From Bacteroidaceae bacterium (GTDB lineage: Bacteria; Bacteroidota; Bacteroidia; Bacteroidales; Bacteroidaceae), in the NCBI GenBank assembly GCA_045654885.1, contig JAZOOF010000049.1, positions 658-64,657 on the forward strand: DNA of 64,000 nt, given 5' to 3'. This document shows, one piece after another, positions 25,839-43,531 of the stretch. The first letter of the stretch is position 1. Each line of letters starts with the position of its first letter. The translations under genes were made by a program, and so were the position numbers. The notes beneath the pieces are model-generated. The model was not told the origin of the DNA and made no database searches. It was given only the letters and a program-made list of their open reading frames with translations.

Positions 25839-26522
25839 TTACATGACTTCATACAATATCCCACTGTAGTTGTCGGTGGAGAGTTTCTCGCACATGAACT
25901 TTATCACGTCAACAACATCCTCCAGCGTTTTGTCGTCTTGCAGACGTGCTGCGAGTATCTGTGGCGCCATGGCCTTGTACACACCATCGGTGCAAAGGAA
26001 TATCCTGTCGCCTTTCTCCACCTCAATGCGGGTGATGTCCGGGATTGCAACTTCCGGGTCCATTGAGAAGAAACAGCGTGTAACAATCTCTGTTCCCGGA
26101 CGGGAGTGGTCGGTTGTCTGGTGTACAACCTCGCCATTGCGCAACAGGTAGCATCTGCTGTCGCCGCAATGTGCTATGGTTACCGTGTTATTCTCCACAC
26201 TTGCCATTACGAGTGTTGTTCCCATCTCAATTGGACGTACCATCCTTGAACGGTAGTAAAGAGCTTCGCTTGCATGTGCAAATGCTGTCAATACCTTTTC
26301 CTCGCAATCATTCGTGCCGGGGGTATCTTCCCAGAAATTGCATACAGCATTGCACACAGTCTCGGCTGCTGCATCGCCCATAGCGTGGCCTCCCATGCCG
26401 TCGCACACAACCAGCAGGCAGCGGTTCTCTTCGGGCATTTCAACAACACGGCAAATATCCTGGTTTGCTATTCTCTTGCCGGTCTCGGAGAATACCGTAT
26501 ACATGTATTTCTGTTTTTCCAT
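25839..26522 (-). CDS. PP2C family serine/threonine protein phosphatase
   Basis: 227 aa. NQDICRV...LLVVCDGMGGHAMGDAAA...LCTDGV are PP2C metal-binding motifs. Confidence 0.85.
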   Translation of the reverse strand: MEKQKYMYTVFSETGKRIANQDICRVVEMPEENRCLLVVCDGMGGHAMGDAAAETVCNAVCNFWEDTPGTNDCEEKVLTAFAHASEALYYRSRMVRPIEMGTTLVMASVENNTVTIAHCGDSRCYLLRNGEVVHQTTDHSRPGTEIVTRCFFSMDPEVAIPDITRIEVEKGDRIFLCTDGVYKAMAPQILAARLQDDKTLEDVVDVIKFMCEKLSTDNYSGILYEVM

Positions 26523-26567
26523 GTCTTGTTTATACGTTTTTGTACAGTTATTTCTTTTTAAGAGTAA

Positions 26568-26607
26568 AACAAACGGCAGAATCTATCATCCGATTCTGTC
26601 GTTTGTT
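26568..26607 (-). terminator. Terminator-like hairpin between the RyR gene and the PP2C gene
   Basis: aacaaacggcagaatc-tatcatcc-gattctgtcgtttgtt (one G-T pair), followed by a T-rich tract on the minus strand. Confidence 0.55.
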
Positions 26608-26625
26608 CAGGAGTTTGTATGCAAA

Positions 26626-26916
26626 TTACTCTTTCGTAATCTTGAATCCCAGTTTTGTTATCAGTTTCAGGGTTCCAAAAGCTGTGTCGCGGTCATATGC
26701 CTTCTCCACCTCGGGCAGCTCCTCGTAGGGCACCAGGCAAGGGTGGGTCTTCAAGGTGTCATTGCGCTCCTCGCCATAGGCCCAGCCCTGCTCCATTCGG
26801 CTCTGCGCCCACACGTCGTGTACGTTTTTTGCAATCTTTTCTACAAGCTCATCCAACTCTGCCGGCAACTGTACGTCATTTGTGTTCACCGGCTGCGGTA
26901 CATAATTCTTTTTCAT
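26626..26916 (-). CDS. Stand-alone RyR (ryanodine-receptor repeat) domain protein
   Basis: 96 aa. LVEKIAKNVHDVWAQSRMEQGWAYGEERNDTLKTHPCLVPYEELPEVEKAYDRDTA matches the RyR-domain consensus (HE.W...R...GW.YG......K.HP.LVPY.EL...EK..DR). Confidence 0.85.
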   Translation of the reverse strand: MKKNYVPQPVNTNDVQLPAELDELVEKIAKNVHDVWAQSRMEQGWAYGEERNDTLKTHPCLVPYEELPEVEKAYDRDTAFGTLKLITKLGFKITKE

Positions 26917-26987
26917 TGTTCCTTGTGTTTTGGGTTTTTATATTATAGAACAATTTCTGATGCGGAATCTGTCAGCGTATATAAAAT

Positions 26988-28766
26988 TTATATTTGTTCT
27001 GTCAAGTCAAGGAAACCAACAATGTCGGTGTCTGTTATCTGCTTTTTGTGTTCAACAAACTTTCCGTCTGTCAATCTCAAGAATGTGATATCGCCTTTGT
27101 CGTTGGTTGTGTATGCCGTTTTCAGTTCTTCAAGATTTTTTATTTCATTACCATCATATCCAATGATTATATCGCCTTTCTTAAATATTGCATGTGTTTC
27201 ATCACCGTATATTGCATGTATTGTCACTCCTGAATATTCACGTTTGCCTTCTGCAATTTCAATAAAAAACTGCTTTGCCGAAGCTACATAATCTTTGCTT
27301 TCGGGATAACACTCTTCAAATGTAGTGAGCATAGACTTTATGTTGCTATAAGCTGTCATGGGGTTGATTGACGCTTCCTTACCTGCATCGAGTTCTTTAA
27401 ATCCGTAATACACTAATGAAATATCGTTCAAGAATCCTCCCCAGTAACGGATTTTAAGCCATTTGAGCCCTTGCTCATCTGCAGCCTGTATAGTGCACAT
27501 TTTCTTTATTTCATCATAATCTTGCACGTTTGTGCTGTCATATTCCAAAAGCTTTTTCAGATAGACATTGTTGAGAGAATCCAGTTTTATTTCTGACTTG
27601 TACAGTTCATCTTCGGCTTTTTTGTTGTCTTCATTCATTTCAGATACATAACCCGATAATTGTTCAAACTCCTGTTTAATTAAAATCTCATATTCCGACT
27701 CTTTTGCTCCCAAAGCTGTTTTTGGCATATTGACAAATTTTGAACGGAGTTCATTGCTTTCCTCCAGGACTGATTCCGGCAACTTGCTTATGATTTGTAA
27801 ATATGAGTAATATAGAATGTTTCCTAAATGTGTTAATTCTTTGAAACTCATATCAATTAGTTTCAATTCGGATGGAAAAAGATTGTTGTCTTCGGTTTCA
27901 GTGGTCAGTTCTGTGATTAGCTCTATTGTTTCATTGATGAACATATACATTGTTGACAAATGCTCATTGACGGAATGTGATTCAAATTCATTTATACCAT
28001 ACAATGAAAGAAGGAATTTTTGCCAAGCTGTGTATTTTACACTTGCAATACTGTTACTCTTATAATATTCAATATTGCTTTTGATAACATCTATTTGAGA
28101 AAACAAATCATCCTTATTGCTGTTCGATTTATATTCATCCATAGCTAAGGCAAGTTTCTTGTTGTCATCTATCAGAAAGTCTGCTATACCGGCGTATAGT
28201 GTCTGGTGTTGTGCGAACTCTTTGCATAACGGTTTTGCTATTGAACGGAAAACGAAGAAGAGTGAAAGAAGTATTGCGGCGATGGATAGCGTGGAGAGAA
28301 TGAACCATTTAGCAAAAATCCTCTGTTTGGTATGTCTTGTACTGCTCAAATAGCTTTCAAGGCGTTTCATAGACATATCGAAATACTCAATTGAACCGGC
28401 TGCAACAGCCTGGTAGTTGCGTAGCTCTTCCATACCTTGCGGCATTGGATTCGGCCATACAAAGCCGCTGAGCATTACCGGTATAATGTTTTTTTTGTGA
28501 CTCATTGCGCACAACACCTCTTTGCGCACCCAGTCTTCTTCATTGCTACACCGTTCGAGAGCATCAGTGGGTAATACAATAACAAAGTCACGACATCCTT
28601 CTATTATATTGAACAATTGTTCATTGAATGGTCCCGAGCGCATAGATTCGAGGTCAAAGAATACTCTGTATCCGGCCGATTTCAAGCGTGTCGCTATCAG
28701 GTTTGCTGTTTCGTAAGAACTGCGGCGGTAGCTTATAAAAATATCATAATTATGTTTCATCGTCAT
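26988..28766 (-). CDS. TIR domain - single TM - long helical region - PDZ-like domain protein
   Basis: The N-terminus YDIFISYRRS...FFD...FVIVLP...WVRKEV is a TIR fold with the conserved Glu. A TM helix follows (WFILSTLSIAAILLSLFFVF), then about 330 aa of helical sequence and a C-terminal PDZ-like module GVTIHAIYGDETHAIFKKGDIIIGYDGNEIKNLEEL. Confidence 0.85.
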   Translation of the reverse strand: MTMKHNYDIFISYRRSSYETANLIATRLKSAGYRVFFDLESMRSGPFNEQLFNIIEGCRDFVIVLPTDALERCSNEEDWVRKEVLCAMSHKKNIIPVMLSGFVWPNPMPQGMEELRNYQAVAAGSIEYFDMSMKRLESYLSSTRHTKQRIFAKWFILSTLSIAAILLSLFFVFRSIAKPLCKEFAQHQTLYAGIADFLIDDNKKLALAMDEYKSNSNKDDLFSQIDVIKSNIEYYKSNSIASVKYTAWQKFLLSLYGINEFESHSVNEHLSTMYMFINETIELITELTTETEDNNLFPSELKLIDMSFKELTHLGNILYYSYLQIISKLPESVLEESNELRSKFVNMPKTALGAKESEYEILIKQEFEQLSGYVSEMNEDNKKAEDELYKSEIKLDSLNNVYLKKLLEYDSTNVQDYDEIKKMCTIQAADEQGLKWLKIRYWGGFLNDISLVYYGFKELDAGKEASINPMTAYSNIKSMLTTFEECYPESKDYVASAKQFFIEIAEGKREYSGVTIHAIYGDETHAIFKKGDIIIGYDGNEIKNLEELKTAYTTNDKGDITFLRLTDGKFVEHKKQITDTDIVGFLDLTEQI

Positions 28767-28805
28767 TTTGCTTTTATTGTATTTAAATAAGTGTTGGAAC
28801 CGATA

Positions 28806-29534
28806 TTACAGTTTCGTCATCTCTATGTTTTCGGTACTATCCCTTAAAATAAGTTCCTTGATTCTGCTACCTCCATACTTCCACATCTTGTGGCAGAATA
28901 CCAGAAATACAATTGTTAGAATGCCACTGATGGCAGGTGTTACGTCTGTTATGAACAATATTGAATCGTAGAGTCCATGAACGATGATAGGTGCAACCAA
29001 TATAAGAATCTTATTCTTCAATGGTGTCTTGGGATAGAATTTGGCAAGTGAATAATAGTATCCCATAAGTATGCCGAAACAGAAATGTCCGGGCACGGCG
29101 AATATGGCGCGGGTGATACCTACCGACAGATATGATTCTACATTAGAGAACAAGTACATGATATTTTCTAATGCAGCGAAACCAAGCGAAATGCATACTG
29201 CATATACAATACCGTCCATCTTTTCGTCAAAGAATCTGTTTTTGCGCAGCACCAACCATAATAGGAAAAACTTGGCAATCTCCTCGGGTATCGCTGCACC
29301 AAAGAATGTCGCACTCACACTTCCAAAGATGCTTGTCGCCTCAGTAGGATATACACCAATCAATCCTAATGGTATTGACATACAAAAGGACAATGGAATA
29401 GACAATATTCCATAAAAGAATGCTTTTAACAATTGTCCTGTTGGCTCTGGTGATTTCTTGTCCTTTTGGTATATATAATACACAAGGATAGCTATGGGTA
29501 GTAGCGCGGTTAGAAAAATTATTATTGGTTCCAT
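28806..29534 (-). CDS. PrsW family intramembrane metalloprotease
   Basis: 242 aa, multi-TM, with the signature motifs IPEEIAKFF, GFAALEN and VHGLYDS. Confidence 0.85.
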   Translation of the reverse strand: MEPIIIFLTALLPIAILVYYIYQKDKKSPEPTGQLLKAFFYGILSIPLSFCMSIPLGLIGVYPTEATSIFGSVSATFFGAAIPEEIAKFFLLWLVLRKNRFFDEKMDGIVYAVCISLGFAALENIMYLFSNVESYLSVGITRAIFAVPGHFCFGILMGYYYSLAKFYPKTPLKNKILILVAPIIVHGLYDSILFITDVTPAISGILTIVFLVFCHKMWKYGGSRIKELILRDSTENIEMTKL

Positions 29535-29548
29535 TTTTTGTTAAAGGT

Positions 29549-31051
29549 CTATTTCTTAAAAATAGATTTAAGTCGTTGAAAGAATGTTTTATGTACTTCG
29601 GAATCCTGTTCTTGTGAGTTATCAATCACGACGTTTTTACTCTCTCTATTTGATTCATAGTTAAAGGAACCTTCATTCTGTTTTACTTGTTTAGATTGCA
29701 AGAATCTGTTTTTATTATTCTTAAGATTAAGAAAATATAACAAGTTGTCCTTGTAATTTTCAGTTGTAAAACATTGTTTATCTCTAAGCCAAGCAGGAAT
29801 ACTATGGATATTGATTTCAGATGATAGAATATTAACAATTTTTGCGTTTGGCTTATGTCCTGTATTTATGTCATTTACAAAAGTGTGCCACTCTGCAGCA
29901 ACATATGGTGTCTCAATATAATCAATACGAGTCGCAAAAACGATCATATTGTCACATACATTTATCACTTCTCCTATAAGAGCTGTATATTGGTCAATTC
30001 CTATTTCTTTAATAGACTTATCTGCAAGAAAAGGCCTAAAACCATTAGAATCCAAGAATTTATATAAATCATATGCTAATGCATAATCTTGGCTCTTACA
30101 TGAAATGAATATATCGAAACCTCGCTCGTTGATTTCGTTGCGTATTTTTTCTATCACCCTAGAAATACGAGCTTTACGTGTTCTTACCAAATCCCATATC
30201 TGCAATATGGCGCTATAATAATTCTTGGTATCTTGTATCAATGTTATTAAACTCTCTCCGTGGTGGGAGTTAAGCGAAATATCTAAACGTTCTATTGATT
30301 TTTCTCTAATAAAGTGCAGTTCTTCATTTGGAAAAAGTACACTTTCATCTTCACCTTGAACCACAAGTGTAGGATTTTCTTCTAATTTTACCTTGAAGTA
30401 TTGTATATCTCTATCTCGTTCATTTGCTTTCTCGTCCATTCCTAGTTGTAACTCCTTTGCTTTTTTCCTTTCCAATCTTTGTAATGCAATATTCCAAGAT
30501 TTACGTTTTTCATTTCTTCTATCAACATCTTGTTGTAAAATAACATTTCTACGTCTTTCACTATTATATTGAGAAACAATAGCATTGTTGTCTTCCAAAA
30601 ATGAATGCAAAATATTTAGGGGTGTGAGAAAATCCTCAAGATCATTATAGTTATATATAGTAAAAACTTGCGGTTTTATTTTTTTATCCCGACTAATAAG
30701 AATGAATGCTGGGAGACTTGAACGAAGCAGCCCAAAATGATTACAGATATCATCGGCTGTTTGCATTGTTACACTAACACCCTCACCATATAGAGGGTGC
30801 CAATCAGATAAATTTTTCACCCATCTCGTCAGGTTTTCGTTCATTTTATCATATGAATTATTGATGAAATAAAAAAAACATATTCTATTCCCTGTTATGC
30901 GGTCTATTCTCCATGCATTATCAACTATTTCACGGAGGATACTTTTGTCATTATCATCGAAACTACTTACAAAAAGTAGCATAAGGTCATATTGATATTG
31001 ATAATAGAACCTATCAAGGACTTGATCAAATTTTAGGGGTGTTACGAACAT
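29549..31051 (-). CDS. TIR domain protein with an unknown N-terminal domain and a coiled coil
   Basis: Residues ~311-430 (nt 29762-30121) read FDIFISCKSQDYA...FLADKS...MIVFAT...YVAAEWHTF, a TIR fold with a Glu. Residues 160-225 are charged coiled coil. I do not recognise the N-terminal 150 aa. Confidence 0.8.
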   Translation of the reverse strand: MFVTPLKFDQVLDRFYYQYQYDLMLLFVSSFDDNDKSILREIVDNAWRIDRITGNRICFFYFINNSYDKMNENLTRWVKNLSDWHPLYGEGVSVTMQTADDICNHFGLLRSSLPAFILISRDKKIKPQVFTIYNYNDLEDFLTPLNILHSFLEDNNAIVSQYNSERRRNVILQQDVDRRNEKRKSWNIALQRLERKKAKELQLGMDEKANERDRDIQYFKVKLEENPTLVVQGEDESVLFPNEELHFIREKSIERLDISLNSHHGESLITLIQDTKNYYSAILQIWDLVRTRKARISRVIEKIRNEINERGFDIFISCKSQDYALAYDLYKFLDSNGFRPFLADKSIKEIGIDQYTALIGEVINVCDNMIVFATRIDYIETPYVAAEWHTFVNDINTGHKPNAKIVNILSSEINIHSIPAWLRDKQCFTTENYKDNLLYFLNLKNNKNRFLQSKQVKQNEGSFNYESNRESKNVVIDNSQEQDSEVHKTFFQRLKSIFKK

Positions 31052-31145
31052 ATCTATAGGAATGTCTGAATTAAAATTATATTAAAGAAGAATCAAAATG
31101 CTAACAATTAACAGTTCGCAAAAACTCTCATTTACTATATCACTT

Positions 31146-31153
31146 CAAAATTA
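31146..31153 (-). promoter_or_regulatory. Candidate internal -7 promoter element (TAATTTTG on minus) in the 211-nt gap of the island
   Basis: caaaatta on the plus strand, about 95 nt upstream of the ATG at 31051. This is the only sizeable intergenic gap inside the cluster. Confidence 0.25.
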
Positions 31154-31262
31154 TATACTTCTTTCATATCACTTGGCAGGTCAGCACGTGGCTCAATACT
31201 GATAGGGCATATTTTTAATGTTGCATCCCTTTGACTGAGTTGAGGATATGCCAAAAGTTCCG

Positions 31263-31724
31263 CTATTTAAAAACCATTCCTCTAATCTCCTCCCCAATAG
31301 CCTCTTCAAGGAAATCACATCTTGCGCAAAGGAGCAGCTCGTGGGTATACTCCTCTAGCATGGCTTTATAGTATGTGACATCTTTGTGATTGGTGTGTGT
31401 TATTCTTTCCCAAAGTGTCTGCTCCACTGCATCTTTATATGCATTGTCCACCGTTTCTCTGTCATCATCGGTCATTAGCTGGCGCAGCTTAGGGTGATTG
31501 AGAATATCTTCTAGCGAGCGTGGGTCATTGGGCGCTATCTCTTGCCAAAGTGCCCGCAGGAACTCTTTGTATTCACATTCTATTCTCAATGGTAGTTCTT
31601 TGTCATATTCTCCTATGCTTTCGGGCTGCTCATGGGCTGCTTCATTGACAATGTTTCCAAAGTATTTGTCAAGTATCTCCCTCTCTTTCTTTATGCACAG
31701 TTCTTTGATTTGCGTTTTGTCCAT
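31263..31724 (-). CDS. Hypothetical protein (helical, acidic), island-specific
   Basis: 153 aa from MDKTQIKELC (ATG 31722-31724). The longer ORF would overlap the upstream gene. No recognisable family. Confidence 0.5.
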   Translation of the reverse strand: MDKTQIKELCIKKEREILDKYFGNIVNEAAHEQPESIGEYDKELPLRIECEYKEFLRALWQEIAPNDPRSLEDILNHPKLRQLMTDDDRETVDNAYKDAVEQTLWERITHTNHKDVTYYKAMLEEYTHELLLCARCDFLEEAIGEEIRGMVFK

Positions 31725-31789
31725 GATATTTTTTATGCTACAAGAGTGTATGAATTGTTTGATGAGATGAAAGTTGAATATAGCTTGTT

Positions 31790-32926
31790 TTATTCGTACA
31801 ATGACCAGTCGATGTCTATCTTGTGTCCACACTTATCACAGAACACCTGTTTCTTGTAGATGATTGCATTGCACTTGGGGCAGTGGAACTCCTGCTGTGA
31901 GTTACGGATGCGCTCTCTTAGTATTCTGTAAAGTTCAGTGTCTTCGCGCTTAATCAAATCATAACCCAATTTCTTCAGCAGCTTGATTGTGTCCATGGCC
32001 ATGTTGCGGTCGAAATCCTTTTCTTTCTCAGGCAGTTGTGAATAGGGTACCATGCAAGGGTTCTCTTTCTTGGCATCGTTACGCTCCGGTCCATAGCTCC
32101 AACCTTGTGCAAGGCGTTCAGCAGCCCATACTTCGTGGGCATTCTCCGCAATTGCTTCACGCAGTTCGTTCAGGTCCTCTGCCAGTTGTACATCTGTCAG
32201 GTCAATAGGTCTTGGAGTGTATGTTTTCATATCTTTTGTGTTTATGGTTACTAAATAGTTTTTTGAATCGTTCCATGCATCGACGAATTGTTCGATGGGG
32301 TATGTGTCCTCGCTGTTTGGTGAGTTGGGGTCATGTATTATCACGCAATTGTTGACTGTGTCACAGGAGAGGACAACCACTGTGTGGTCGGGAACCTCAC
32401 CAATCAATATGTCCTCGATAATCTCTTCGGTTCTATTCCCCAGTAACTCTCCGCCATCAACGGCAACTATTACGCTATCATTTGCATTGAGAGCATTTGC
32501 TATATCGTCAAAAGAGGCATTATATTGGCGGGCAACAGCAAGGCCTTTTGCCTCTAAGTGGCGTCCTACATTATGTAGCGCAGTTCCGGTTTCTTTCTGC
32601 CAACCATTTTTAATTGCATTTTGCAGCAGTTGTTCTTCGTCAAACTCTATATTAAACTTGCGGAGTATATATTTCTCACACTCAAGGCTGCATAAATTCT
32701 CGCTGTTGCATGTGGCTGCAATAGCCGTCATTGGGATAGGCTCGCATTCATTGGGCAGTTTTCCCAATTCGGCGTCTACTAATTGAGAAATACGTAGCAA
32801 TTCTCTTAATTCAGCATCGTGGGGTAGTGTTTCGAGTATCTCTTTGCACTCCTGTGCGCTCGCATTTCCCTCAAGGAATGCTGCCAACACCTCTGCCGGG
32901 ATGTTATTTACCGATTTCTTCTTCAT
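31790..32926 (-). CDS. Anti-sigma-like N-terminus fused to a C39/papain-like peptidase domain, a RyR domain and a C-terminal zinc ribbon (no TM segment)
   Basis: Residues are numbered from the long ORF start at 32950. The N-terminus LAAFLEGNASAQECKEILETL is anti-sigma-like. Residues ~75-235 carry Cys (NLCSLEC), His (PDHTVVV) and Asp (IHDPN) in papain/C39 order. Residues ~255-335 are a RyR domain (AENAHEVWAAERLAQGWSYGPERNDAKKENPCMVPYSQLPEKEKDFDR). The ribbon is CPKC...CDKC. The gene overlaps the sigma gene by 23 nt. Confidence 0.75.
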   Translation of the reverse strand: MKKKSVNNIPAEVLAAFLEGNASAQECKEILETLPHDAELRELLRISQLVDAELGKLPNECEPIPMTAIAATCNSENLCSLECEKYILRKFNIEFDEEQLLQNAIKNGWQKETGTALHNVGRHLEAKGLAVARQYNASFDDIANALNANDSVIVAVDGGELLGNRTEEIIEDILIGEVPDHTVVVLSCDTVNNCVIIHDPNSPNSEDTYPIEQFVDAWNDSKNYLVTINTKDMKTYTPRPIDLTDVQLAEDLNELREAIAENAHEVWAAERLAQGWSYGPERNDAKKENPCMVPYSQLPEKEKDFDRNMAMDTIKLLKKLGYDLIKREDTELYRILRERIRNSQQEFHCPKCNAIIYKKQVFCDKCGHKIDIDWSLYE

Positions 32927-33473
32927 ACTTCCCAATCTCCTTAAGTGCAATTTCAGTCAAGGCTGCAATGGCACGTTTTTTTATGTTATACAAATTGTCT
33001 ACATTGGTCATTAGTTCCGCAGCCACAACCTTTGGCTCGGCTTCTTCCAGGACCAATCGTCTTATTACATGGACATAGCGCTTGTTCGGCATCATTGAAA
33101 ACAGGTGCTCTATATCCATTTTTGCATTAGTCGCCGCCTCATTGACGGTGTCTTCATGTATCTCATTCTCAAAAAGATTCACTTTGGGTTCCATATCTAT
33201 CATGTTATTGCGCTTTGCAATAAAGTAGCGAATAGCAATTACTTTCATCCACTGATAGATAGTGCTACGACCTTGGAACTGTCTTAAACGATATGCATCG
33301 TTTTCCATTAGGTGCAGATAGAATTCGTTTACAAATTCATCGTAGTCAACCTCATAGGAGAATACATTACGCATTATGCTCATGAAAAGCGGGCGGCAAC
33401 TCTTGAAAAAGAACTGCTGCGTCACTCGCTCGTCCCGAGCAATCAATGCTTCAATTATTTGTTGGTCGGTCAT
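32904..33473 (-). CDS. RNA polymerase sigma-70 family (ECF-type) factor
   Basis: 189 aa. Region 2 (DYDEFVNEFYLHLMEND...YQWMKVIAIRYF) and a region 4 HTH (RYVHVIRRLVLEEAEPKVVAAELMTNVDNLYNIKKRA). Confidence 0.8.
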   Translation of the reverse strand: MTDQQIIEALIARDERVTQQFFFKSCRPLFMSIMRNVFSYEVDYDEFVNEFYLHLMENDAYRLRQFQGRSTIYQWMKVIAIRYFIAKRNNMIDMEPKVNLFENEIHEDTVNEAATNAKMDIEHLFSMMPNKRYVHVIRRLVLEEAEPKVVAAELMTNVDNLYNIKKRAIAALTEIALKEIGKYEEEIGK

Positions 33474-33479
33474 TGTTTG

Positions 33480-36008
33480 TTACTCTTTAAGATATGATGT
33501 GTACGCTGTAGGCAACACTTTTATCAACGTTTCGTCCAGTTCCATTACGTTGCAATCAATTTCTTTCAATTTGCTGTTTGAACAGATATCAAGATGAGCA
33601 AAATTCTTTTTTAATCTATTTTTCTCCATAGCAGACGAATAAAGGTCGGTAATTTTTGCTTTCATCTGTTCGTCGTATGTTAAAGGACGGTAGCGCAGCA
33701 ACAATTGCTCTAAAACCCATCTGTTGTGTTCTACTTCTCCCAATTTTTTCATCATTGAACCTTCAAATCCTTTTGACGGGTCTGTTCCAAAACATCTGAA
33801 TTTACTGAACATTGAATAGATGTTATACTGATTTGACCACATCTTTGCAGACTTTGGTTTATCGTTGGTTTTATACATATTGGCTCTGGGATATTTAAAA
33901 GATTCCATTACTTCAGAATATTTTATTTTTCCACGGTTTTCTTTTATCCACTCGTCACATCCTTTTTTGATTTTTTCTTTATTCTTGTCAGAACTTATGC
34001 TATAATAACCATTGGAGATTTTATCATAATCTTCGTCTGTCAATTTTTTATAGCGCTTTTTCATCTGCTCCCAAACAAATTGGTCATATGCATCTCCAAC
34101 TTTTTTGGAAATACTTTCTGCCATCTCTGTTAAAGAAAGATTATAGCATTTTTTTGCCATTCCAAAAGCTTTGAGTTTTTCTGAATATCTGCCTTTATAG
34201 TTTATTTGATTGAGCAGTTCGTCGTCTAATCTTTGATAAACCAATACTTGTTGTGTAGAAGTTTCTTCATATATACAACTCGGTAAATATGTAGCAGCTG
34301 CTATTGCACGACTATTTTCTGGCAGACATATTGCAATTGTCATTTTTGCATTCATGTTTCTGCTTGCATCTTCCAGATATTTTTGTATAGCCGGATTTTC
34401 AACAGAACCATTTATGAATTCCCACTCAATGTCAAGGAAGTCACCTCCCAGGTAGTCAAAACCAACCGGGATGTGGATGTCCTGTGGATTCCATTCCAAG
34501 ACTCCGTTTTCATTGATGTTGCCATATCGCCAATGTGAAAGCGCAAACAGTTCCTTGAAACGTCCTATGAAGAAGTTCTTTTCCTCTGCTGCATTCTTGT
34601 CTATGAAGGTGATTTTTGTACGTATCTGTTTATTCTCATAATTTGGATAGTGGCATAAATGTGCTGCTTCTATTGCCATAGCCACTCCCATGCGTGACAT
34701 TCCTACAATTACAAGATGTACAAAATTATTGTCATCTGGTTTTATGCCATCAAATCCTTCAAGAGGCAAATACTTGCCATTTCCTTTAAGTTCTTGGCAT
34801 ACAAGAACATTTTGAGCCCACATCTCATAGTAATTGAAGGGCAGGAACTTTATTTTATCAACATTGATATCTGTTACTTGAAGAACATTGAATGAGGTCT
34901 GGTATTCGAACATAACGCGACAAACCAGTTCTTCCCCTTTCTTGAATGCTTGGGAATTTTTGATTTCGTCATTGATTAATCTCAAACATTTCATGTTCAT
35001 TGTGTCATGATACGACTCAATGTCATCGGTTCTTGTATCCTCGCCAATGACAAAAACTTCTATTGCATTCTCAATGTGTAAATATGCAATGTCATCTTTA
35101 GAAGTGCGGTTGCCATAATATATGATTATATGTTTCTGTTGCTCCTCTGTCAGTCCCGAGAAGAGTTCACGCCTGAAGCTTTCTACATCGCGTAGGGTTT
35201 GGATAACTATGTAAGGCAACTTTTTGACCTTGTTATTGACGAACAGCTCGCTGACGATTCCAATGGCAACATCGTTTCCACCAATGACTATGTAGAATTT
35301 CTTTTTTGCTCTACGTAGAAAACGTTTGTATTTGACCTCTCCTTTTAGCCATTGCTCCCTGCGTCGGTCAATCCAACTGATGAGCATTGAAATCAATAGG
35401 CCGTTAAGGAGAAGAAAACCCAATGTGGCAATAATGCTGGAAATGATACGCCCTCTGTGCGTTGTTGTCATATGTTGGTTCCCCGGGTCGATAAAATGGT
35501 AGTATACAGTCCACAACAGTGATGGGTTTTCCTGTTTTTCCTTTATAGAGTCCGGCAAGTTTGATTGCTTGAGTATGGTGCAACTCTTTCCTTCTTCATT
35601 GCATGTTATGATACCTAATGTGTCTATTCCTGAATACTCCTCTTTATATAGATTATCTTCGTAGACCAATTCTTTGCTTGATAGGCATTGATAATCTTCT
35701 TTGGCACAATGTTTGTCGGTAATGGCGATGTTGACAAGATGAACGATTGCTGTGATTGTTACAGGTATGAACAATACAAATTTTATGACCTTGCCCAAGA
35801 AGTTTCCTCTTGTCAAAAGCCAATCACGTTTTATGGGTTTGCAGAAAACAATAAAGTACCGTATGCAGTATATGAGACCAATAGCACCGACAATGATTTC
35901 AAAACACTGTTTCTGCCAAAAGATACCAACTACATACGTAATTATACATATGGCGAGTAATGCGATTTCTAAAAATTTCCAAATAATATTCTTTATTGTA
36001 TTGCGCAT
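33480..36008 (-). CDS. Multi-TM protein with a CASTOR/POLLUX-like pore motif, two Rossmann/RCK-like modules and a divergent RyR-like C-terminus (putative ligand-gated cation channel)
   Basis: 3 N-terminal TM helices, a Cys-containing loop, then LLWTVYYHFIDPGNQHM followed by a TM helix (a pore-helix/filter/inner-helix arrangement). FYIVIGGNDVAIG and HLVIVGMSRMGVA are Rossmann-type beta-alpha starts. The C-terminal GEVEHNRWVLEQLLLRY...AHLDI...L.E resembles the RyR/TrkA-N-RyR architecture. Confidence 0.65.
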   Translation of the reverse strand: MRNTIKNIIWKFLEIALLAICIITYVVGIFWQKQCFEIIVGAIGLIYCIRYFIVFCKPIKRDWLLTRGNFLGKVIKFVLFIPVTITAIVHLVNIAITDKHCAKEDYQCLSSKELVYEDNLYKEEYSGIDTLGIITCNEEGKSCTILKQSNLPDSIKEKQENPSLLWTVYYHFIDPGNQHMTTTHRGRIISSIIATLGFLLLNGLLISMLISWIDRRREQWLKGEVKYKRFLRRAKKKFYIVIGGNDVAIGIVSELFVNNKVKKLPYIVIQTLRDVESFRRELFSGLTEEQQKHIIIYYGNRTSKDDIAYLHIENAIEVFVIGEDTRTDDIESYHDTMNMKCLRLINDEIKNSQAFKKGEELVCRVMFEYQTSFNVLQVTDINVDKIKFLPFNYYEMWAQNVLVCQELKGNGKYLPLEGFDGIKPDDNNFVHLVIVGMSRMGVAMAIEAAHLCHYPNYENKQIRTKITFIDKNAAEEKNFFIGRFKELFALSHWRYGNINENGVLEWNPQDIHIPVGFDYLGGDFLDIEWEFINGSVENPAIQKYLEDASRNMNAKMTIAICLPENSRAIAAATYLPSCIYEETSTQQVLVYQRLDDELLNQINYKGRYSEKLKAFGMAKKCYNLSLTEMAESISKKVGDAYDQFVWEQMKKRYKKLTDEDYDKISNGYYSISSDKNKEKIKKGCDEWIKENRGKIKYSEVMESFKYPRANMYKTNDKPKSAKMWSNQYNIYSMFSKFRCFGTDPSKGFEGSMMKKLGEVEHNRWVLEQLLLRYRPLTYDEQMKAKITDLYSSAMEKNRLKKNFAHLDICSNSKLKEIDCNVMELDETLIKVLPTAYTSYLKE

Positions 36009-36057
36009 ATGTGGAACCGGTGTTTGTCAAAAAAAAGTAAATAGAATTCAACAAATG

Positions 36058-36065
36058 CAAATATA
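36058..36065 (-). promoter_or_regulatory. Candidate -7 promoter element for the island operon (TATATTTG on minus)
   Basis: caaatata on the plus strand, about 50 nt upstream of the ATG at 36008, in a very AT-rich 270-nt intergenic region. Confidence 0.35.
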
Positions 36066-36250
36066 TATTAAAATGTTTGAAATGAAATAAAATCTTACTT
36101 ATTATTCGTTTAGAGTATAATAATTTGCGCTTTACTCATTTTGTCTGTTATCAATGTTATATATTTATGAAATTCTATTTTTTTATGTTGCTTTGCCTTT
36201 TGTTTAAGTTTTTTTAAATCTATCTTTTAAAGATTTATGGATTTTTATTG

Positions 36251-36258
36251 TAAATTTG
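36251..36258 (+). promoter_or_regulatory. Candidate -7 promoter element (TAAATTTG)
   Basis: Matches TAnnTTTG, 20 nt upstream of the ATG at 36278. Confidence 0.35.
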
Positions 36259-36277
36259 CAACGATTACAATGTTGAT

Positions 36278-36484
36278 ATGGTAACACCTGATATAGAATG
36301 CTCAACCATGGACGAGCGACGTGCTTTTGTACAGGCTCAGTGGCAGTGTATGGGAAATTGCGAGCTGTGTGGCAAATGCCACATACTCAAGGGACGTGAC
36401 CCCGAGTCGCTTTATGCCGACTATATCAATGGCAAACGCTCATATATCGATGTTACATTGAGTATAAGGAACAATAATCGTTAA
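36278..36484 (+). CDS. Small Cys-rich hypothetical protein
   Basis: 68 aa with [15 protein letters not shown] (4 Cys). No family recognised. Confidence 0.45.
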
Positions 36485-36504
36485 CAATTAAAAAAGTTTT
36501 TATT

Positions 36505-36681
36505 ATGGAGATAAAAGAGAAAGTATTGGCAACAATGAGAGAGGCCGGCGAGCCTTTGAACGCAGGCAAGATTGCAGAACTCAGCGGCATTGACCGCAAG
36601 GAGGTGGACAAGGCCATGAAACTGTTGAAAGAGGAGGGTGCCATTGTGTCTCCCGTCCGTTGCAAGTGGACTGTGGCATAA
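36505..36681 (+). CDS. Small winged-helix-like protein (58 aa), not in the supplied ORF track
   Basis: ATG 36505-36507, translation [58 protein letters not shown], stop 36679-36681. The pattern resembles a wHTH DNA-binding module. Confidence 0.5.
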
Positions 36682-36767
36682 GAGTGGCACTGTTGTGCAT
36701 GATAAAATCAATGGGAACCCAAAAGGCTCCCATTGATTGTTTTATACGGTTGCCCTTTTGCTCCCTT

Positions 36768-39202: not shown

Positions 39203-41899
39203 ATGGGGAGAGTTTGTCTGTGTCTTGCTGTAATGTTTTTCATCTGTAGTGCTCAAAAAGTTGATGCGCAAGTACAGAGTATCCGTGAGAAACAAGATTC
39301 CGTTTCGGTAGTAAAATCATTGGAGCATATCAAGCCTGAGAAAATCAAGAAGGGCCCGATGAACAATGCTCTTGATGTGTTGAGCGGTCAGTCCGCAGGT
39401 GTAAATGTTACCACAAATGGTAGCGATAGGCTCGCGATGCTGAACAGTATCCGTGTGCGAGGTACCACCTCCATTATGGGCGGAAACGACCCGTTGGTAA
39501 TTATAGACGGAGTGACATCCGACATCTCAACTCTCTCGACCATATATCCTGCCGATATCGAGAGTTTCACAATTTTGAAGAATGCCACAGAAACCGCTAT
39601 GTATGGTTCCCGTGGTGCTTCGGGTGTCATCGAAATTAAGACTAAGAAAAGTGCAGGACAGGGGTTCCAGATCTCTTACGATGGTAACTACGGACTCGAG
39701 TCTATGTACAAACATTTGCAGATGCTCAGTGCCCCGGAATATATTGCCACTGCGAAGAGTTTGGGCTTAGAGTACAATGATGGTGGTTACAACACCAACT
39801 TCCACGATGTAATAACCCGTACTGGCTATATTCATCAACATCATCTTGCATTCAGTGGTGCTTCGGAGAACTCCAACTACCGTGCTTCATTTGGCTTTAT
39901 GGATCATAAGACCATCGTCAAGGTGAACGACTATAGGAATCTTGTGGTAAAACTCGATGCAACGCAAAAGGCATTTGATGGCCGCCTGATAGGTGATTTT
40001 GGTGTATATGGCTACTCCTCAACAGTACACGACATCTTTGATACCCGAATGTTGTTTTACTCTGCAGCGGCGCAGAATCCGACATATCCCACGGGAACAG
40101 ATGTAAATGGCAATTGGGTAAAGAACTCGGCTGCATCACACATCAACCACCCCGGAGCACTCCTTTATGAAAAAAACGACTCTAAGGAACAGAATTTCAA
40201 TATGCATCTGGGGTTGAAATTCAATATCCTTGAAAATTTGATATTATCTGCTTTCGGCTCTTATTCCTTCTCTTCTACCGGAAATGCGCAGTTTTGTCCA
40301 ACCTGGGTTTGGGCACAGGGAAATGTATATCGTGGTGAGTTCAAGGGTGAGGATTACTTTACCAATATGTCTCTCTCGTATAACAATACATGGGGAGATT
40401 CCCGCTTTGAGGCAGTTGTGGGCGCAGAATATCTTAAACAGGTCAGGACCGGTTTCTGGGTGCATGCCAAAGGAATAACCACAAATGATTTCTCCTATAA
40501 TAACATCGGAGCAACATCATCGCGTCCTTTCGGTGGTACAGGCAGTAGCTATGAAGACCCGTCACTTGCTTCAATAATGGGTAGTGTCACATATAGTTAC
40601 AAGAACAGATACGCCATTTCGGCAACCCTACGTGGTGATGGCTCTTCGATGGTTAGTGACAACCACACATTCGGCTTTTTCCCTTCTGCATCGTTCAGTT
40701 GGGATATGAAGCGTGAGAAATTCCTTACGGATGTTGATTTTGTTACGATGTTGAAGCTTCGCACCGGATATGGTCAGTCGGGTAATCTTGGCGGCATCAG
40801 ATCTTACACAACACTGAACACTGTCAGGGAAAATGGCATAGTCTCCATCAATGGAACCCCGACTGTTACGATGGGTAGCATAAAAAACACAAACCCTGAC
40901 CTTAAATGGGAAACGCGTTCAACTTTTAACATAGGCTTTGACTTGGGATTGTGGAACAACCGATTGATGTTGACCTCGGAGTACTATTATTCAAAGACCA
41001 CCGACATGCTGTATGACTATTATGTTCCAGTACCAAACTTTGCTTTTGACAAGTTGATGGCGAACGTAGGCTCTATGTCGAACCAAGGTGTAGAACTGGG
41101 AATTTCGGTAGTACCCATTCAAAGAAAGGATATGGAGATGAACATTAACTTCAATATGTCCTATCAAAAGAATAAGTTGCTGTCACTCAGCGGCGAGTAT
41201 AATGGAATGCAGATGACGGCGTCCGACATAACACCTATTGGCTCGCTCTATGGCGCCGGCCAGAATGGAGGTAATAACAATGTGGTATATCAGATAGTCG
41301 GGCAACCATTGGGAGTATTCTATCTGCCTCACTGCACCGGGCTTAAAAAGAACGGATTGGGTGGTTATAGCTATGAGATAGAGGATTTGGATGGTAAGGA
41401 CGGAATAGATCTCAGCGATGGAGGTGACAGATACATAGCTGGGCAGGCAACACCCAAAATAACCATAGGCTCGAATATCAGTTTCCGCTATAAGTTCTTC
41501 GACATAGCTATGCAGATTAACGGTGCTTTCGGTCACAAGATATTCAATGGTACAGGATTGGCTTATACCAACATGTCAATATTCCCTGATTATAATGTAT
41601 TGAAGGATGCTCCCGAGAAGAATATTATTGACCAAAATGTTTCGGACTATTGGCTGGAAAATGGTGACTATGTAAATATTGAACAACTTACCATAGGATT
41701 CAACATTCCTATGAAATCAAAGACTGCCAACTCTTTACGCTTGTCGGCAAGTATAAGTAACCTGGCTACAATAACTGCCTATACCGGAATTACGCCAATG
41801 ATAAACAGTTATGTAGTTAGCGGGACATTAGGTATTGACGATAAACGCACCTATCCTTTGTATCGCACCTATTCATTAGGTCTCAGTGTTCAATTCTAA
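39203..41899 (+). CDS. SusC/RagA family TonB-linked outer-membrane protein
   Basis: 898 aa. Plug motifs (IRVRGTTSI..GNDPLVIIDGV, YGSRGASGVIEIKTKK) and a C-terminal ...LGLSVQF. Confidence 0.9.
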   Translation: MGRVCLCLAVMFFICSAQKVDAQVQSIREKQDSVSVVKSLEHIKPEKIKKGPMNNALDVLSGQSAGVNVTTNGSDRLAMLNSIRVRGTTSIMGGNDPLVIIDGVTSDISTLSTIYPADIESFTILKNATETAMYGSRGASGVIEIKTKKSAGQGFQISYDGNYGLESMYKHLQMLSAPEYIATAKSLGLEYNDGGYNTNFHDVITRTGYIHQHHLAFSGASENSNYRASFGFMDHKTIVKVNDYRNLVVKLDATQKAFDGRLIGDFGVYGYSSTVHDIFDTRMLFYSAAAQNPTYPTGTDVNGNWVKNSAASHINHPGALLYEKNDSKEQNFNMHLGLKFNILENLILSAFGSYSFSSTGNAQFCPTWVWAQGNVYRGEFKGEDYFTNMSLSYNNTWGDSRFEAVVGAEYLKQVRTGFWVHAKGITTNDFSYNNIGATSSRPFGGTGSSYEDPSLASIMGSVTYSYKNRYAISATLRGDGSSMVSDNHTFGFFPSASFSWDMKREKFLTDVDFVTMLKLRTGYGQSGNLGGIRSYTTLNTVRENGIVSINGTPTVTMGSIKNTNPDLKWETRSTFNIGFDLGLWNNRLMLTSEYYYSKTTDMLYDYYVPVPNFAFDKLMANVGSMSNQGVELGISVVPIQRKDMEMNINFNMSYQKNKLLSLSGEYNGMQMTASDITPIGSLYGAGQNGGNNNVVYQIVGQPLGVFYLPHCTGLKKNGLGGYSYEIEDLDGKDGIDLSDGGDRYIAGQATPKITIGSNISFRYKFFDIAMQINGAFGHKIFNGTGLAYTNMSIFPDYNVLKDAPEKNIIDQNVSDYWLENGDYVNIEQLTIGFNIPMKSKTANSLRLSASISNLATITAYTGITPMINSYVVSGTLGIDDKRTYPLYRTYSLGLSVQF

Positions 41900-41911: not shown

Positions 41912-43531
41912 ATGAGAAAATGTATCAACATATTTATGGTTATTCTTACAGCAGTCATGACAGCTTCTTGTCTTGAAGAGGAACATAGAGACCAACTGTA
42001 TGAAGATGAAATCTACAATAGTGCCGACAATATATATATAAATGCAGTTGCGGTGCTCTACAACCATATCGGTGGTAGTGACGATAGCGAGGGCTTGCAA
42101 GGAACATGTCGAGGTATATATGATTATAACACGCTGACCACCGACGAGGCTATGATCCCTATCAGGGGTGGCGACTGGTATGATGGCGGCTTGTGGGAGA
42201 ATATGTATCAGCACAAATGGAGCCCCAACGACCAACCATTGTACAATACCTGGAAATATCTCTACAAAGTAGTTGTGCTGTCGAATAAGTCTTTGCATAT
42301 GATTGACAAGTATAGTTATTACTTGACCGAAGAGCAGAGGGTCGCATATGAAGCTGAGGTGCGAGCCATAAGAGCTCTTTTCTACTACTATATAATGGAT
42401 ATGTATGGCAGAGTGCCTATTGTAACGTCATATGATCAGCCGCAGGATGGGGTCGTGCAAAGCGAGCGTAGCGAAGTGTTCCGCTTTATCGTTGATGAGT
42501 TGCAAGAGGTCGTAGGCCAATTACCCGACGAACGTAGCAATAAGATGGGAAACTATTACGGTCGTATAACTAAGCCTGTCGTTTATTTTCTATTGGCGAA
42601 ATTAGCACTGAATGTCGAGATATATTGTGACGACAACTGGACCGATGGTGTATCACAAAACGGTAAGGAGATATTTTTTACCGTCGATGGCGTGGTGCTC
42701 AATGCTTGGCAGACTTGCATAAGGTATTGCGACAAGCTCGCCGAGGCTGGATATCAGTTGGAGGGTGATTATAGCTGCAATTTTACCGTTCACAATGAGA
42801 ACTCCAATGAGAATATATTCACTATTCCTTTGGATAAGAACTTCTATGCTGCACAATTCTGGTATCTCTTCCGCTCACGACACTATAATCATGGCGGTGC
42901 ATTGGGCGGCTCATCCGAGAATGGCACGAGTGCCAATATCTCTACAGTTCTTGCCTATGGCTATGGAACTGAGCATGTGGATGCTCGCTTTGAAAAGAAT
43001 TTCTATGCAGGCGCTGTTGTGGTCGATGGAAAGGCCGTTATGATGGATAACGGAAAACCATTGGAGTATCATCCATTGGAGTTAAGATTGAATCTTACAG
43101 GAAGTCCCTATGTAAAGACAGCCGGTGCTCGAATGGCGAAATATGAGGTTGACCGCACAGCGCATTCCGATGGTCGCCAACCAGATAACGACATCGTGCT
43201 CTTCCGCTATGCCGATGCACTATTGATGAAGGCAGAGGCAAAAGTGCGCAATGGCGAAGATGGCTCGTTTGAGTTGAACGAGGTACGCAGCCGTGTCGGT
43301 ATGCCATACCGCGAGGCAACGCTTGAAAACATATTGGAAGAACGTTTGTTGGAATTGGTATGGGAAGGTTGGAGACGACAGGATATGGTGCGATTTGGTG
43401 TATACCACAAGTCATACGACCAGCGCGTTCAGTTGCCCGATGAAGATAACGGATATACAACCGTGTTTCCAATCCCACAGAAGAGCATTGACCTTAACCC
43501 GAGATTGAAGCAGAACGTTGGATATAAATGA
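41912..43531 (+). CDS. RagB/SusD family nutrient-uptake outer-membrane lipoprotein
   Basis: Lipobox LTAVMTASC. TPR-like SusD motifs (RALFYYYIMDMYG, RYADALLMKAEA, ERLLELVWEGWRRQDMVRFG). Confidence 0.9.
   Translation: MRKCINIFMVILTAVMTASCLEEEHRDQLYEDEIYNSADNIYINAVAVLYNHIGGSDDSEGLQGTCRGIYDYNTLTTDEAMIPIRGGDWYDGGLWENMYQHKWSPNDQPLYNTWKYLYKVVVLSNKSLHMIDKYSYYLTEEQRVAYEAEVRAIRALFYYYIMDMYGRVPIVTSYDQPQDGVVQSERSEVFRFIVDELQEVVGQLPDERSNKMGNYYGRITKPVVYFLLAKLALNVEIYCDDNWTDGVSQNGKEIFFTVDGVVLNAWQTCIRYCDKLAEAGYQLEGDYSCNFTVHNENSNENIFTIPLDKNFYAAQFWYLFRSRHYNHGGALGGSSENGTSANISTVLAYGYGTEHVDARFEKNFYAGAVVVDGKAVMMDNGKPLEYHPLELRLNLTGSPYVKTAGARMAKYEVDRTAHSDGRQPDNDIVLFRYADALLMKAEAKVRNGEDGSFELNEVRSRVGMPYREATLENILEERLLELVWEGWRRQDMVRFGVYHKSYDQRVQLPDEDNGYTTVFPIPQKSIDLNPRLKQNVGYK

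Follow-up and report, generated by a model that had tools for sequence, protein, structure and literature searches.

Here we describe a minus-strand locus in a 64,000-nucleotide stretch of DNA from a Bacteroidaceae bacterium (contig JAZOOF010000049.1; the whole stretch is called the window below), in which a gene for a channel-like membrane protein, CHAN, is accompanied by genes for RyR-domain proteins, an extracytoplasmic function (ECF)-type sigma factor and two TIR proteins. Comparison with related loci showed that the locus is composite and not one fixed nine-gene unit. Its conserved unit is CHAN together with an RyR gene, with or without the sigma factor and a fusion protein that joins an anti-sigma-like N-terminus, a C39-like peptidase, an RyR domain and a Zn-ribbon. 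We propose that the locus encodes a Thoeris-like conflict system, most likely directed against phages, in which exchangeable TIR sensors signal through a nucleotide to a conserved effector/receptor core with RyR domains, a proposal to which we assign an even chance of being correct. The protein families, their linkage, the kept residues, the gene fusions and the swapping of the cassette were observed, and from them we infer the ligand, the direction of signalling and the role in defence.

A conserved core and an exchangeable cassette

The initial annotation had described nine tightly packed minus-strand genes in this part of the window, and the open reading frames (ORFs) called on the window reproduce that layout exactly: the nine lie at 25839-36008, and the spacings recomputed from their coordinates are 6 nt, a 23-nt overlap, 65, 211, 14, 39, 71 and 103 nt. 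The compositionally foreign core that had been noted was also borne out, as the G+C content is 0.33-0.40 at 27-36 kb and about 0.45-0.55 in the flanks. Domain calls in the window proteins were made with Pfam and NCBIfam, which confirmed the two TIR proteins, PrsW, PP2C and the RyR domains of the 96-aa protein and the fusion protein. From CHAN onward, the genes are:

33480..36008, minus strand: CHAN, channel-like protein, 842 aa; conserved core gene
32904..33473, minus strand: divergent ECF-type sigma-70 factor, 189 aa (TIGR02937); 6 nt downstream of CHAN
31790..32926, minus strand: anti-sigma-like/C39/RyR/Zn-ribbon fusion, 378 aa from ATG; overlaps the sigma gene by 23 nt
31263..31724, minus strand: 153-aa protein, cassette gene; no family match
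29549..31051, minus strand: soluble TIR protein, 500 aa (TIR_2), cassette gene
28806..29534, minus strand: PrsW-family intramembrane protease, 242 aa (PF13367), cassette gene
26988..28766, minus strand: TIR-transmembrane (TM)-helical-PDZ-like protein, 592 aa (TIR_2; weak PDZ), cassette gene
26626..26916, minus strand: stand-alone RyR-domain protein, 96 aa (RyR96; PF02026)
25839..26522, minus strand: PP2C phosphatase, 227 aa (PP2C_2, E=4e-18); membership doubtful

Relatives of CHAN were found in 293 GTDB species genomes, and we compared the 80 best CHAN loci, all from different species, by calling and clustering their ORFs and reading their gene orders. Nearly all of these loci belong to Bacteroidales (Bacteroidaceae, Alistipes/Rikenellaceae, Muribaculaceae, Onthomorpha and others). 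An RyR-domain gene lies within 10 kb of CHAN in 60 of the 80 loci, usually just downstream and on the same strand, and where the RyR or the sigma gene is the next gene called, the gap to CHAN is 0-54 nt. The RyR gene takes two forms: a small RyR protein is encoded in the co-directional run downstream of CHAN in 35 loci, often by the very next gene, and the sigma factor with the anti-sigma-like/C39/RyR/Zn-ribbon fusion follows CHAN in 22-24 loci. Moreover, CHAN and a canonical RyR domain are found in one polypeptide in L042, L063, P0315, P0254, P0258 and P0329. It is this recurrent same-strand adjacency, together with the single-ORF fusions, that identifies CHAN and an RyR protein as the conserved unit.

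The idea that all nine genes form one unit did not survive this comparison, since the core consists of CHAN and the RyR gene, and the TIR genes, PrsW and the 153-aa gene belong to a cassette that is exchanged between cores that are 96-98% identical. The closest relative of the window is L001, a Bacteroidaceae metagenome-assembled genome; the two are 96% identical over 37920-31790, where the fusion gene ends with its stop codon, and share nothing beyond. Past the core, each locus has its own co-directional and tightly packed genes: L004 carries the 153-aa gene, PrsW and the 592-aa TIR (92% identical) without the 500-aa TIR, and L015 carries the 153-aa gene, PrsW, RyR96 and PP2C with neither TIR. 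The 500-aa TIR gene is unique to the window among the 80 loci, being missing even from the two that share its neighbours. The 153-aa gene, whose product has no Pfam or NCBIfam family match, is present in 3-4 loci; in L004 and L015 the PrsW gene comes directly after it, and the L051 copy is on the upstream side of CHAN, next to a small RyR gene and without PrsW. TIR_2 is the commonest Pfam family among the 70 distinct families of cassette proteins (12 families), followed by WD40, TPR and Sel1 repeats. Also found repeatedly in the cassettes are an M48 peptidase with a Zn-ribbon, an 85-aa protein, a TM protein with a Zn-ribbon, a SIR2_2-TIR fusion, PrsW and c27, a paralogous channel-like family.

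The initial annotation had proposed to test whether these genes co-localise in other genomes, and they do. The 595 kb of sequence on the downstream side of CHAN hold 38 TIR genes, 36 of them on the same strand, against a single one in 580 kb upstream (binomial p=1.6e-10); for PrsW the counts are 9 and 1, and for M48 they are 19 and 0. Among loci with at least 8 kb of downstream sequence, TIR genes were present in 13 of the 17 sigma-type loci, 8 of the 20 with RyR only and 3 of the 14 without RyR, and PrsW or M48 lies downstream in 15 of the 17 sigma-type loci.

Two further features of the cassettes were noticed. A trio made up of the M48 peptidase with Zn-ribbon (292 aa), the 85-aa protein and the TM protein with Zn-ribbon (168 aa) occurs in about 16 loci (L001, L003, L004, L017-L020 and others) and not in the window. 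C-terminal Zn-ribbons are found on several components (the fusion protein, M48, c6 and c19), and they might be a shared docking module.

PP2C had been counted as a member of the island, and we rejected both it and the neighbouring CreD as system components. PP2C is common to 1 of the 80 loci only (L015), it lies beyond a terminator-like hairpin that follows RyR96 at 26598-26577, the one hairpin noted in a scan for sigma-70 promoters and terminators that otherwise gave no excess over the shuffled expectation, and it overlaps the start of the CreD gene (25839-25864). Different subsets of four genes, those for PP2C, a vWA protein (c23), CreD and a 380-aa protein (c36), lie beside the small RyR gene of L015, L017 and L051, and these genes may be a separate neighbouring module.

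Domains and kept residues of the encoded proteins

RyR96 matches PF02026 with E=9e-37 (125.6 bits, cut-off 27.4) and is close to the solved RyR protein of Bacteroides thetaiotaomicron, 3NRT. The RyR domain of the fusion protein matches the same family with E=5e-34 (117 bits, cut-off 27.4), and in a Foldseek search with an AlphaFold2 (AF2) model this part of the protein was matched to the B. thetaiotaomicron RyR protein. Two 2026 preprints describe phage RyR-domain proteins of the R12 type (PF02026), RyDEP and RyR Tad, that either bind 2'cADPR, 3'cADPR and cyclic ADP-ribose (cADPR) with affinities in the nM range or cleave them; the H, W, H and D residues by which they do so are spaced H-x2-W-x21-H-x16-D (PMC13232231; 10.64898/2026.06.04.730250). 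For RyR Tad, the dissociation constant for 3'cADPR is 43 nM, and 2'cADPR and cADPR are bound too (10.64898/2026.06.04.730250). Mapped by identical spacing, not by structural superposition, these residues are kept in 34-35 of the 35 small RyR proteins, where they correspond to H33, W36, H58 and D75 of RyR96, and the ligand-type H, W and D are kept in all 22 fusion proteins (H264, W267 and D306 in that of the window).

RyR96 was also used as a query against a library of 1.84 billion proteins, the source of the CHAN-RyR fusion representatives P0315, P0254, P0258 and P0329. The best 150 library matches to RyR96 include a TIR_2+RyR fusion protein, P0313, as well as multi-TM+RyR, 4TM+TrkA_N+RyR and RyR+TPR-S proteins. 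In L081, a contig of 4.3 kb, the gene for P0313 (519 aa, 599-2158) is followed by one for a TM-containing P-loop NTPase (2306-4309) with the Walker A motif GDAGCGKS.

The CHAN family comprises more than 1165 full-length proteins, with mostly 45-64% identity among the best matches. CHAN has no match to a Pfam family, and an exact-sequence lookup in public assemblies returned no match. An AF2 model built on 27 homologues, with a predicted local distance difference test score (pLDDT) of 77.7 and a predicted template modelling score (pTM) of 0.73, places N-terminal TM helices, a pore helix and loop and an inner helix ahead of two Rossmann-type domains. Its top Foldseek match is GsuK (E=1e-7), including NAD- and ADP-bound entries, and further matches are Slo1/BK, Slo2.2, the CASTOR gating ring and MthK. 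The earlier description of a channel-like protein with two Rossmann modules is supported by these matches, and on the strength of the model CHAN is predicted to be of the tandem-RCK channel type, with a pore module followed by two RCK folds. Within the gene, we distinguish:

35472..35495, minus strand: pore-loop motif F-I-D-P-G-N-Q-H, aa 172-179, at the position of a selectivity filter
34164..35303, minus strand: tandem RCK/Rossmann modules, about aa 236-400 and 428-615, from the strand/helix alternation of the AF2 model and a weak match to Pfam Slo-like_RCK
33483..33776, minus strand: divergent RyR-like C-terminal domain, about aa 745-842

The FIDPGNQH motif sits between the predicted pore helix and the inner helix of the model and is kept in the family, with D in 63, G in 73, N in 66 and Q in 65 of 78 sequences. 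The K+ selectivity filter TVGYG is absent from the CHAN pore loop. The motif may resemble the 'ADAGNH' filter of CASTOR/DMI1, a likeness that serves as a lead only.

Three RyR-type domains had been claimed for the locus. Those of RyR96 and the fusion protein are firm; the third, at the C-terminus of CHAN, has no Pfam match and is reached in steps. The C-terminal region of c27, the paralogous channel-like family of the same loci, matches Pfam RyR with E=1.5e-5 and aligns with the C-terminus of CHAN with E=8e-4, and a hidden Markov model (HMM) of the CHAN C-terminus recovers c27 and then, below threshold, almost only RyR-domain proteins. Because of this transitive support, the last 100 or so residues of CHAN are probably a divergent RyR-type domain. 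Within them, E760, H761, R763, W764, H805 and D825 (E-H-x-R-W...H...D) are invariant in 77 of 77 sequences.

The sigma factor of the window falls short of the TIGR02937 cut-off (E=6e-10, 38.9 bits, cut-off 42.9), yet all 21 members of its family match this model in an NCBIfam scan (best E=1.8e-16), so the original ECF-type call is sound. Sequence searches of the PDB with the sigma factor, both as a single sequence and as a profile, gave no match. The sigma gene always directly precedes the fusion gene, and the overlapping downstream position of the latter is kept in all sigma-type loci, with no match of its product to an anti-sigma profile. The parts of the fusion protein are:

32762..32926, minus strand: anti-sigma-like N-terminus of three helices, aa 1-55
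32237..32704, minus strand: C39-like Cys peptidase, aa ~75-230
31955..32221, minus strand: RyR domain, aa 236-324
31811..31891, minus strand: Zn-ribbon, aa ~346-372

The helices of the N-terminus are seen in the AF2 model of the protein. The C39_2 match is weak in the window protein (E=4e-4, below the cut-off); PF13529 and PF02026 are precomputed together in most of the 120 fusion homologues listed, which are 70-96% identical. In the family C79, C83 and H181 are invariant and D199 is kept in 21 of 22 members. Judged by its sequence, the fusion protein qualifies as a member of the C39-like peptidase family with Cys, His and Asp kept, which upholds the peptidase that had been read from the window protein. 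Foldseek with the fusion model returned only RyR proteins among its best 50 matches, with no C39 or anti-sigma structure.

The two TIR proteins of the window differ in architecture. The 500-aa protein matches TIR_2 with E=6e-8 over residues 314-411 and the HMM of the locus-type TIRs with E=1e-24, and its N-terminal 300 or so residues have no assigned domain. The 592-aa protein matches TIR_2 with E=1e-13 over residues 9-131, and the PDZ domain ascribed to it remains a weak match (E ~1e-3). The regions concerned are:

29723..30139, minus strand: TIR domain of the 500-aa protein, about aa 305-443, with the catalytic Glu387 at nt 29891-29893
28350..28766, minus strand: TIR domain of the 592-aa protein, aa 1-139, with Glu83 at nt 28518-28520 and a TM segment at about aa 149-185
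27042..27254, minus strand: PDZ-like region of the 592-aa protein, about aa 505-575, weakly similar to DegQ/DegP

The catalytic Glu is kept in 38 of 38 alignable TIRs, including Glu83 and Glu387. A hydrophobic or TM segment directly follows the TIR domain in 26 of the 39 TIR proteins of the locus type, the 592-aa protein among them, and the variable regions past this segment would be periplasmic if the TIR domain is cytoplasmic. PrsW matches PF13367 with E=4e-36 (124.9 bits, cut-off 23.5) and NF033739 with 135.5 bits, under the equivalog cut-off of 225, and it has the motifs EEIAK (aa 84), GH (aa 150) and HGLYD (aa 186).

A proposed TIR-to-RyR pathway and its alternatives

In the pathway that we propose, the variable TIR proteins, here the 592-aa TIR-TM-PDZ-like protein and the soluble 500-aa TIR, would act as the sensors, a Thoeris-like pattern suggested by the presence of one conserved core with several fast-changing TIRs. 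Once activated, they would turn NAD+ into a messenger derived from ADP-ribose (ADPR), such as a cADPR isomer, and the R12-type RyR domains of three proteins would be its receptors. The RyR-like domain of CHAN probably pairs with RyR96 to form a two-repeat, R12-like module, as their adjacency and the natural fusions suggest. Ligand binding would open CHAN as a tandem-RCK cation channel that is not selective for K+, with ion flux, depolarisation and growth arrest or abortive infection as the outcome. The RyR domain of the fusion protein would switch on the C39 protease, the anti-sigma part would be inactivated and the ECF sigma factor would be set free for a transcriptional response, following by analogy the logic of CalpL-CalpT-CalpS (10.1101/2024.05.08.593097). 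By buffering or hydrolysing the signal, the free RyR protein may also impose a threshold. PrsW, or M48 elsewhere, would be accessory and could process membrane-anchored TIRs, which is the step with the least support. It is a more tentative claim, for which we would put the chances a little below even, that bacteria possess the complete pathway in which a TIR makes a cADPR-type nucleotide, an RyR repeat binds it and a cation channel opens.

Several observations weigh against this pathway and should be kept in mind. The likeness of the CHAN C-terminus to RyR is remote (direct hhalign E=0.026, no Pfam match), 19 of the 22 fusion proteins have Thr or Asn in place of the phosphate-contacting His, and the anti-sigma role is read solely from gene position and three predicted helices in an AF2 model with a pLDDT of 65. 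Upstream of the cassette genes of sigma-type loci, we found no convincing dyad or 7-mer in common that might serve as an ECF promoter. The ligand could be a more general nucleotide, since RyR R12 domains also bind ATP/ADP and have been solved with ATP, ADP and AMP-PCP (PDB 6uhh, 9l9b, 9l90), and the RCK domains of GsuK bind NAD+ and ADP, with which it has been solved. More than half of the CHAN loci have no TIR gene within 10 kb, so CHAN-RyR can exist without a linked TIR, and some cassette TIRs, such as the SIR2_2-TIR fusions, resemble NADase effectors rather than makers of a signal. These last points would also fit a reversed or parallel wiring, with CHAN-RyR gated by ATP, ADP, NAD+ or ADPR, the sigma factor driving the cassette, which does lie downstream of its gene on the same strand, and the TIRs acting as NAD+-depleting effectors or toxins. 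We consider this arrangement unlikely, because several TIRs that change quickly around one conserved core are what is seen with ThsB-like sensors and not with a single effector, TIR-RyR fusion proteins exist, the residues through which phage RyR proteins bind cADPR isomers with nM affinity are kept here, and no sigma-type promoter motif was detected upstream of the cassette genes.

The housekeeping genes around the locus, RecX, a ComF-like phosphoribosyltransferase, PrmC and SusC/SusD on one flank and CreD, an SDR and Upp on the other, with no recognisable defence island, also speak against a conflict system. They would suit an envelope-stress or physiological regulon unrelated to phages, made up of the ECF sigma/anti-sigma pair, the membrane proteases PrsW and M48, a membrane protein with a PDZ domain and a cation channel, which would respond to damage of the cell envelope, for example by bile, antimicrobial peptides or a type VI secretion system. 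PrsW, M48, PDZ and ECF sigma factors are typical of envelope-stress pathways, of which PrsW-RsiW-sigmaW is an established one. The frequency of PrsW or M48 in sigma-type loci, the adjacent CreD and the membrane anchoring of most TIRs, whose C-terminal parts would lie outside the cytoplasm, point the same way. The anti-sigma-like protein, however, has no TM segment, which makes its cleavage by a PrsW-type intramembrane protease unlikely, and the low G+C, the swapping of cassettes and their content of TIR, WD40, TPR, Sel1, SIR2 and DUF4062-NTPase proteins are hallmarks of conflict systems; the envelope features are, moreover, compatible with the sensing of phage attack at the envelope. We therefore regard such a regulon as distinctly improbable.

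Linkage and fusions count against the two remaining explanations. Phage RyR proteins are anti-Thoeris factors, RyR96-like proteins about 60% identical to it are encoded on phage-like contigs and an integrase precedes CHAN in three loci, as would be seen if the small RyR protein were an anti-defence sponge or hydrolase of a mobile element, like RyDEP or RyR Tad, with unrelated cargo as its neighbours. This is very unlikely given that the link between the RyR gene and CHAN extends over dozens of species, with the two joined into one gene in several, and that CHAN is essentially absent from viral contigs (a single edge match among 2.9 million), for which reason a phage or prophage origin was also rejected. 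Nor does the window look like such an element: no tRNA was found in it, the direct repeats flanking the island are short, chance-level matches and not recognisable attachment sites, no integrase was found among the flanking ORFs scanned, and tblastn detected neither an integrase nor a NusG-like remnant upstream of CHAN. That unrelated genes came together by chance in a variable island could be read from the fact that only three of the nine genes (CHAN, sigma and fusion) are common with L001 and that PP2C and the 500-aa TIR are near-unique to the window; the downstream bias of TIR, PrsW and M48 genes given above, the gene fusions, the tight spacing and the shared direction of the genes leave it hardly any probability, and we rate it the lowest of all.

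If the TIR-to-RyR reading is true, RyR/R12 is a host-side receptor class new to TIR-based immunity, with a new effector architecture of an RCK cation channel and a protease-controlled sigma factor, and the sponges and glycosidases with RyR domains that phages carry are explained as mimics of the host receptor. The RyR repeat would then be an ancient receptor of TIR nucleotides that was joined to channels in bacteria independently of, or before, the animal ryanodine receptors, and its messenger would, in addition, free an ECF sigma factor by way of the RyR-controlled C39/anti-sigma fusion, which would make this a new Thoeris type with both ion flux and transcription as outputs. A direct action of cADPR-type nucleotides on the repeats of ryanodine receptors has been a matter of debate for decades, and a small bacterial channel with an RyR-like domain, a trans-acting RyR96 and cognate TIRs would offer a tractable biochemical and structural test of it. 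The CHAN family is widespread among gut Bacteroidales, a group for whose defence systems current catalogues offer poor coverage, and the swapping of cassettes at a fixed junction provides a natural library of TIR sensors (PDZ, Sel1, WD40, TPR and repeat ectodomains) for envelope sensing.

Viral and mobile contexts of related genes were seen as well. The 65 viral loci with an RyR match encode small stand-alone RyR proteins with no TIR or CHAN beside them. In L083-L088, phage-like IMG/VR contigs with dense, one-directional small ORFs and no TIR or CHAN nearby, the stand-alone RyR proteins are 59-64% identical to RyR96; they are candidates for sponges with which Bacteroidales phages imitate the host receptor. 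Same-strand genes upstream of CHAN encode a tyrosine integrase in L008, L020 and L037 and a NusG-like (UpxY-type) protein in L002, L008 and L037, so integrative elements may carry some copies of the system, and a dedicated antiterminator may serve these.

As for the surroundings in the window, the 759 nt upstream of CHAN (36009-36767) are AT-rich near CHAN, and two small ORFs can be read there on the opposite strand, one Cys-rich (~65 aa) and one helix-turn-helix-like (~58 aa). A 325-aa ORF with a GTG start on the plus strand (26314-27291) is antisense to RyR96 and to the 3' end of the 592-aa TIR gene, and it is most likely spurious, since it overlaps well-supported genes. Relative to L001, the window has an extra block of about 6 kb at 38.8-45.0 kb with SusC-like (39203-41899), SusD-like (41912-43531) and cyclic nucleotide monophosphate-binding (43543-44145) genes, and the G+C drops to 0.33 at 44-45 kb, inside this region. 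A 100-bp tandem repeat of 6.1 copies with 95% matches follows a HAD-hydrolase gene in the intergenic stretch 45833-46442; L001 has about 1.5 copies. Among the other 46 window ORFs, those outside 24.4-36.1 kb, PADLOC gave single matches to PD-T4-2_B (E=2.5e-37), mad2 (E=2e-25) and MTase_II (E=4e-6).

Comparison with known systems

Within the locus and among the cassette proteins, PADLOC found domain-level matches to TIR and PP2C only and no complete system, as had been anticipated. Its ThsA and ThsB models, run against the locus and cassette proteins, detected no ThsA and a weak, domain-level similarity to ThsB/TIR. In line with the initial annotation, the usual partners of TIR systems (ThsA, CD-NTase, pAgo and STAND) gave no PADLOC match anywhere in the window; what it missed was a receptor for the signal, a role that, going by the phage RyR proteins, the RyR domains most plausibly fill. 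Its statement that no described system combines TIR, RyR, PrsW and an ion channel holds insofar as there is no catalogued match, and it has to be amended because type X Thoeris, a published system, already pairs an ion channel with a TIR, though one of a different family. Our literature search found no earlier description of a host-side bacterial conflict system with RyR domains.

The likeness to Thoeris that two TIR proteins in one locus had brought to mind, that of a multi-ThsB organisation, holds up. As in Thoeris, TIRs with an intact Glu stand beside a conserved membrane or ion-channel protein with a putative nucleotide-binding module, several TIRs may occur per locus, and the sensors turn over fast around one conserved core, as is the case with ThsB sensors. 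Unlike in type I, type II (TIR with TM-Macro) and type X, the receptor here would be RyR (R12) and not SLOG, Macro or another known type. The TIRs are of the TIR_2 'FISYSxxD' kind and mostly TM-anchored, a branch of ECF sigma factor and anti-sigma-protease-RyR protein is added, as are the PrsW or M48 proteases, and many CHAN loci have no linked TIR. Type X pairs a TIR with the ion channel ThsK, its messenger being unknown, and that paper and its supplements make no mention of RyR, C39 or TrkA (10.64898/2025.12.03.692087). The type X TIRs score 13 bits against the HMM of the locus-type TIRs, with a best BLASTP E-value of 0.13; the comparison with type X covers these TIR sequences.

With RyDEP and RyR Tad, the locus shares PF02026 and the spacing H-x2-W-x21-H-x16-D (PMC13232231; 10.64898/2026.06.04.730250), and small proteins of a dimer-forming family, those of the 3NRT type having been deposited as dimers. 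Theirs are viral, stand-alone and anti-defence, whereas the RyR domains described here are chromosomal and are linked with, or part of, channel, protease/anti-sigma and TIR proteins, which implies a receptor or regulator role on the side of defence. In the type III CRISPR system CalpL-CalpT-CalpS, a messenger-activated protease frees an ECF sigma factor (10.1101/2024.05.08.593097). There the sensor is SAVED, the protease is Lon and the messenger is cyclic tetra-adenylate (cA4), whereas here the sensor would be RyR, the protease C39/papain-like and joined with the anti-sigma part in one polypeptide, and the messenger presumably TIR-derived. Pfam finds neither a SAVED nor a Lon domain in the proteins of the locus, and the likeness is one of logic by analogy.

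CHAN resembles GsuK, MthK, Slo1/BK and CASTOR/DMI1 in its predicted TM helices, pore loop and two RCK domains per subunit, and among these GsuK is regulated by NAD+ and ADP. It differs from tandem-RCK channels in having FIDPGNQH and not TVGYG, an extra N-terminal helix and a C-terminal RyR-like domain, and its identity to them is 9-13%. Animal ryanodine receptors (R12, R34), with Ca2+ release evoked by cADPR, likewise combine RyR repeats on a cation channel with an enzyme for ADPR-type cyclic nucleotides (presumably TIR here; CD38/SARM1 there), but the scaffold is of the RCK type here and the six-TM RyR/IP3R type there, and the repeats are single or supplied in trans and not in tandem. As in PrsW-RsiW-sigmaW of Bacillus subtilis, a PrsW-family protease lies near an ECF sigma/anti-sigma pair; here the anti-sigma-like protein is soluble and not an obvious PrsW substrate, and PrsW is optional in other loci, M48 being commoner in that part of the cassette. 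Set against all of these, the CHAN-RyR locus would represent a form of nucleotide signalling by TIRs in which the receptor domain and the channel effector are new and a sigma/protease branch is added.

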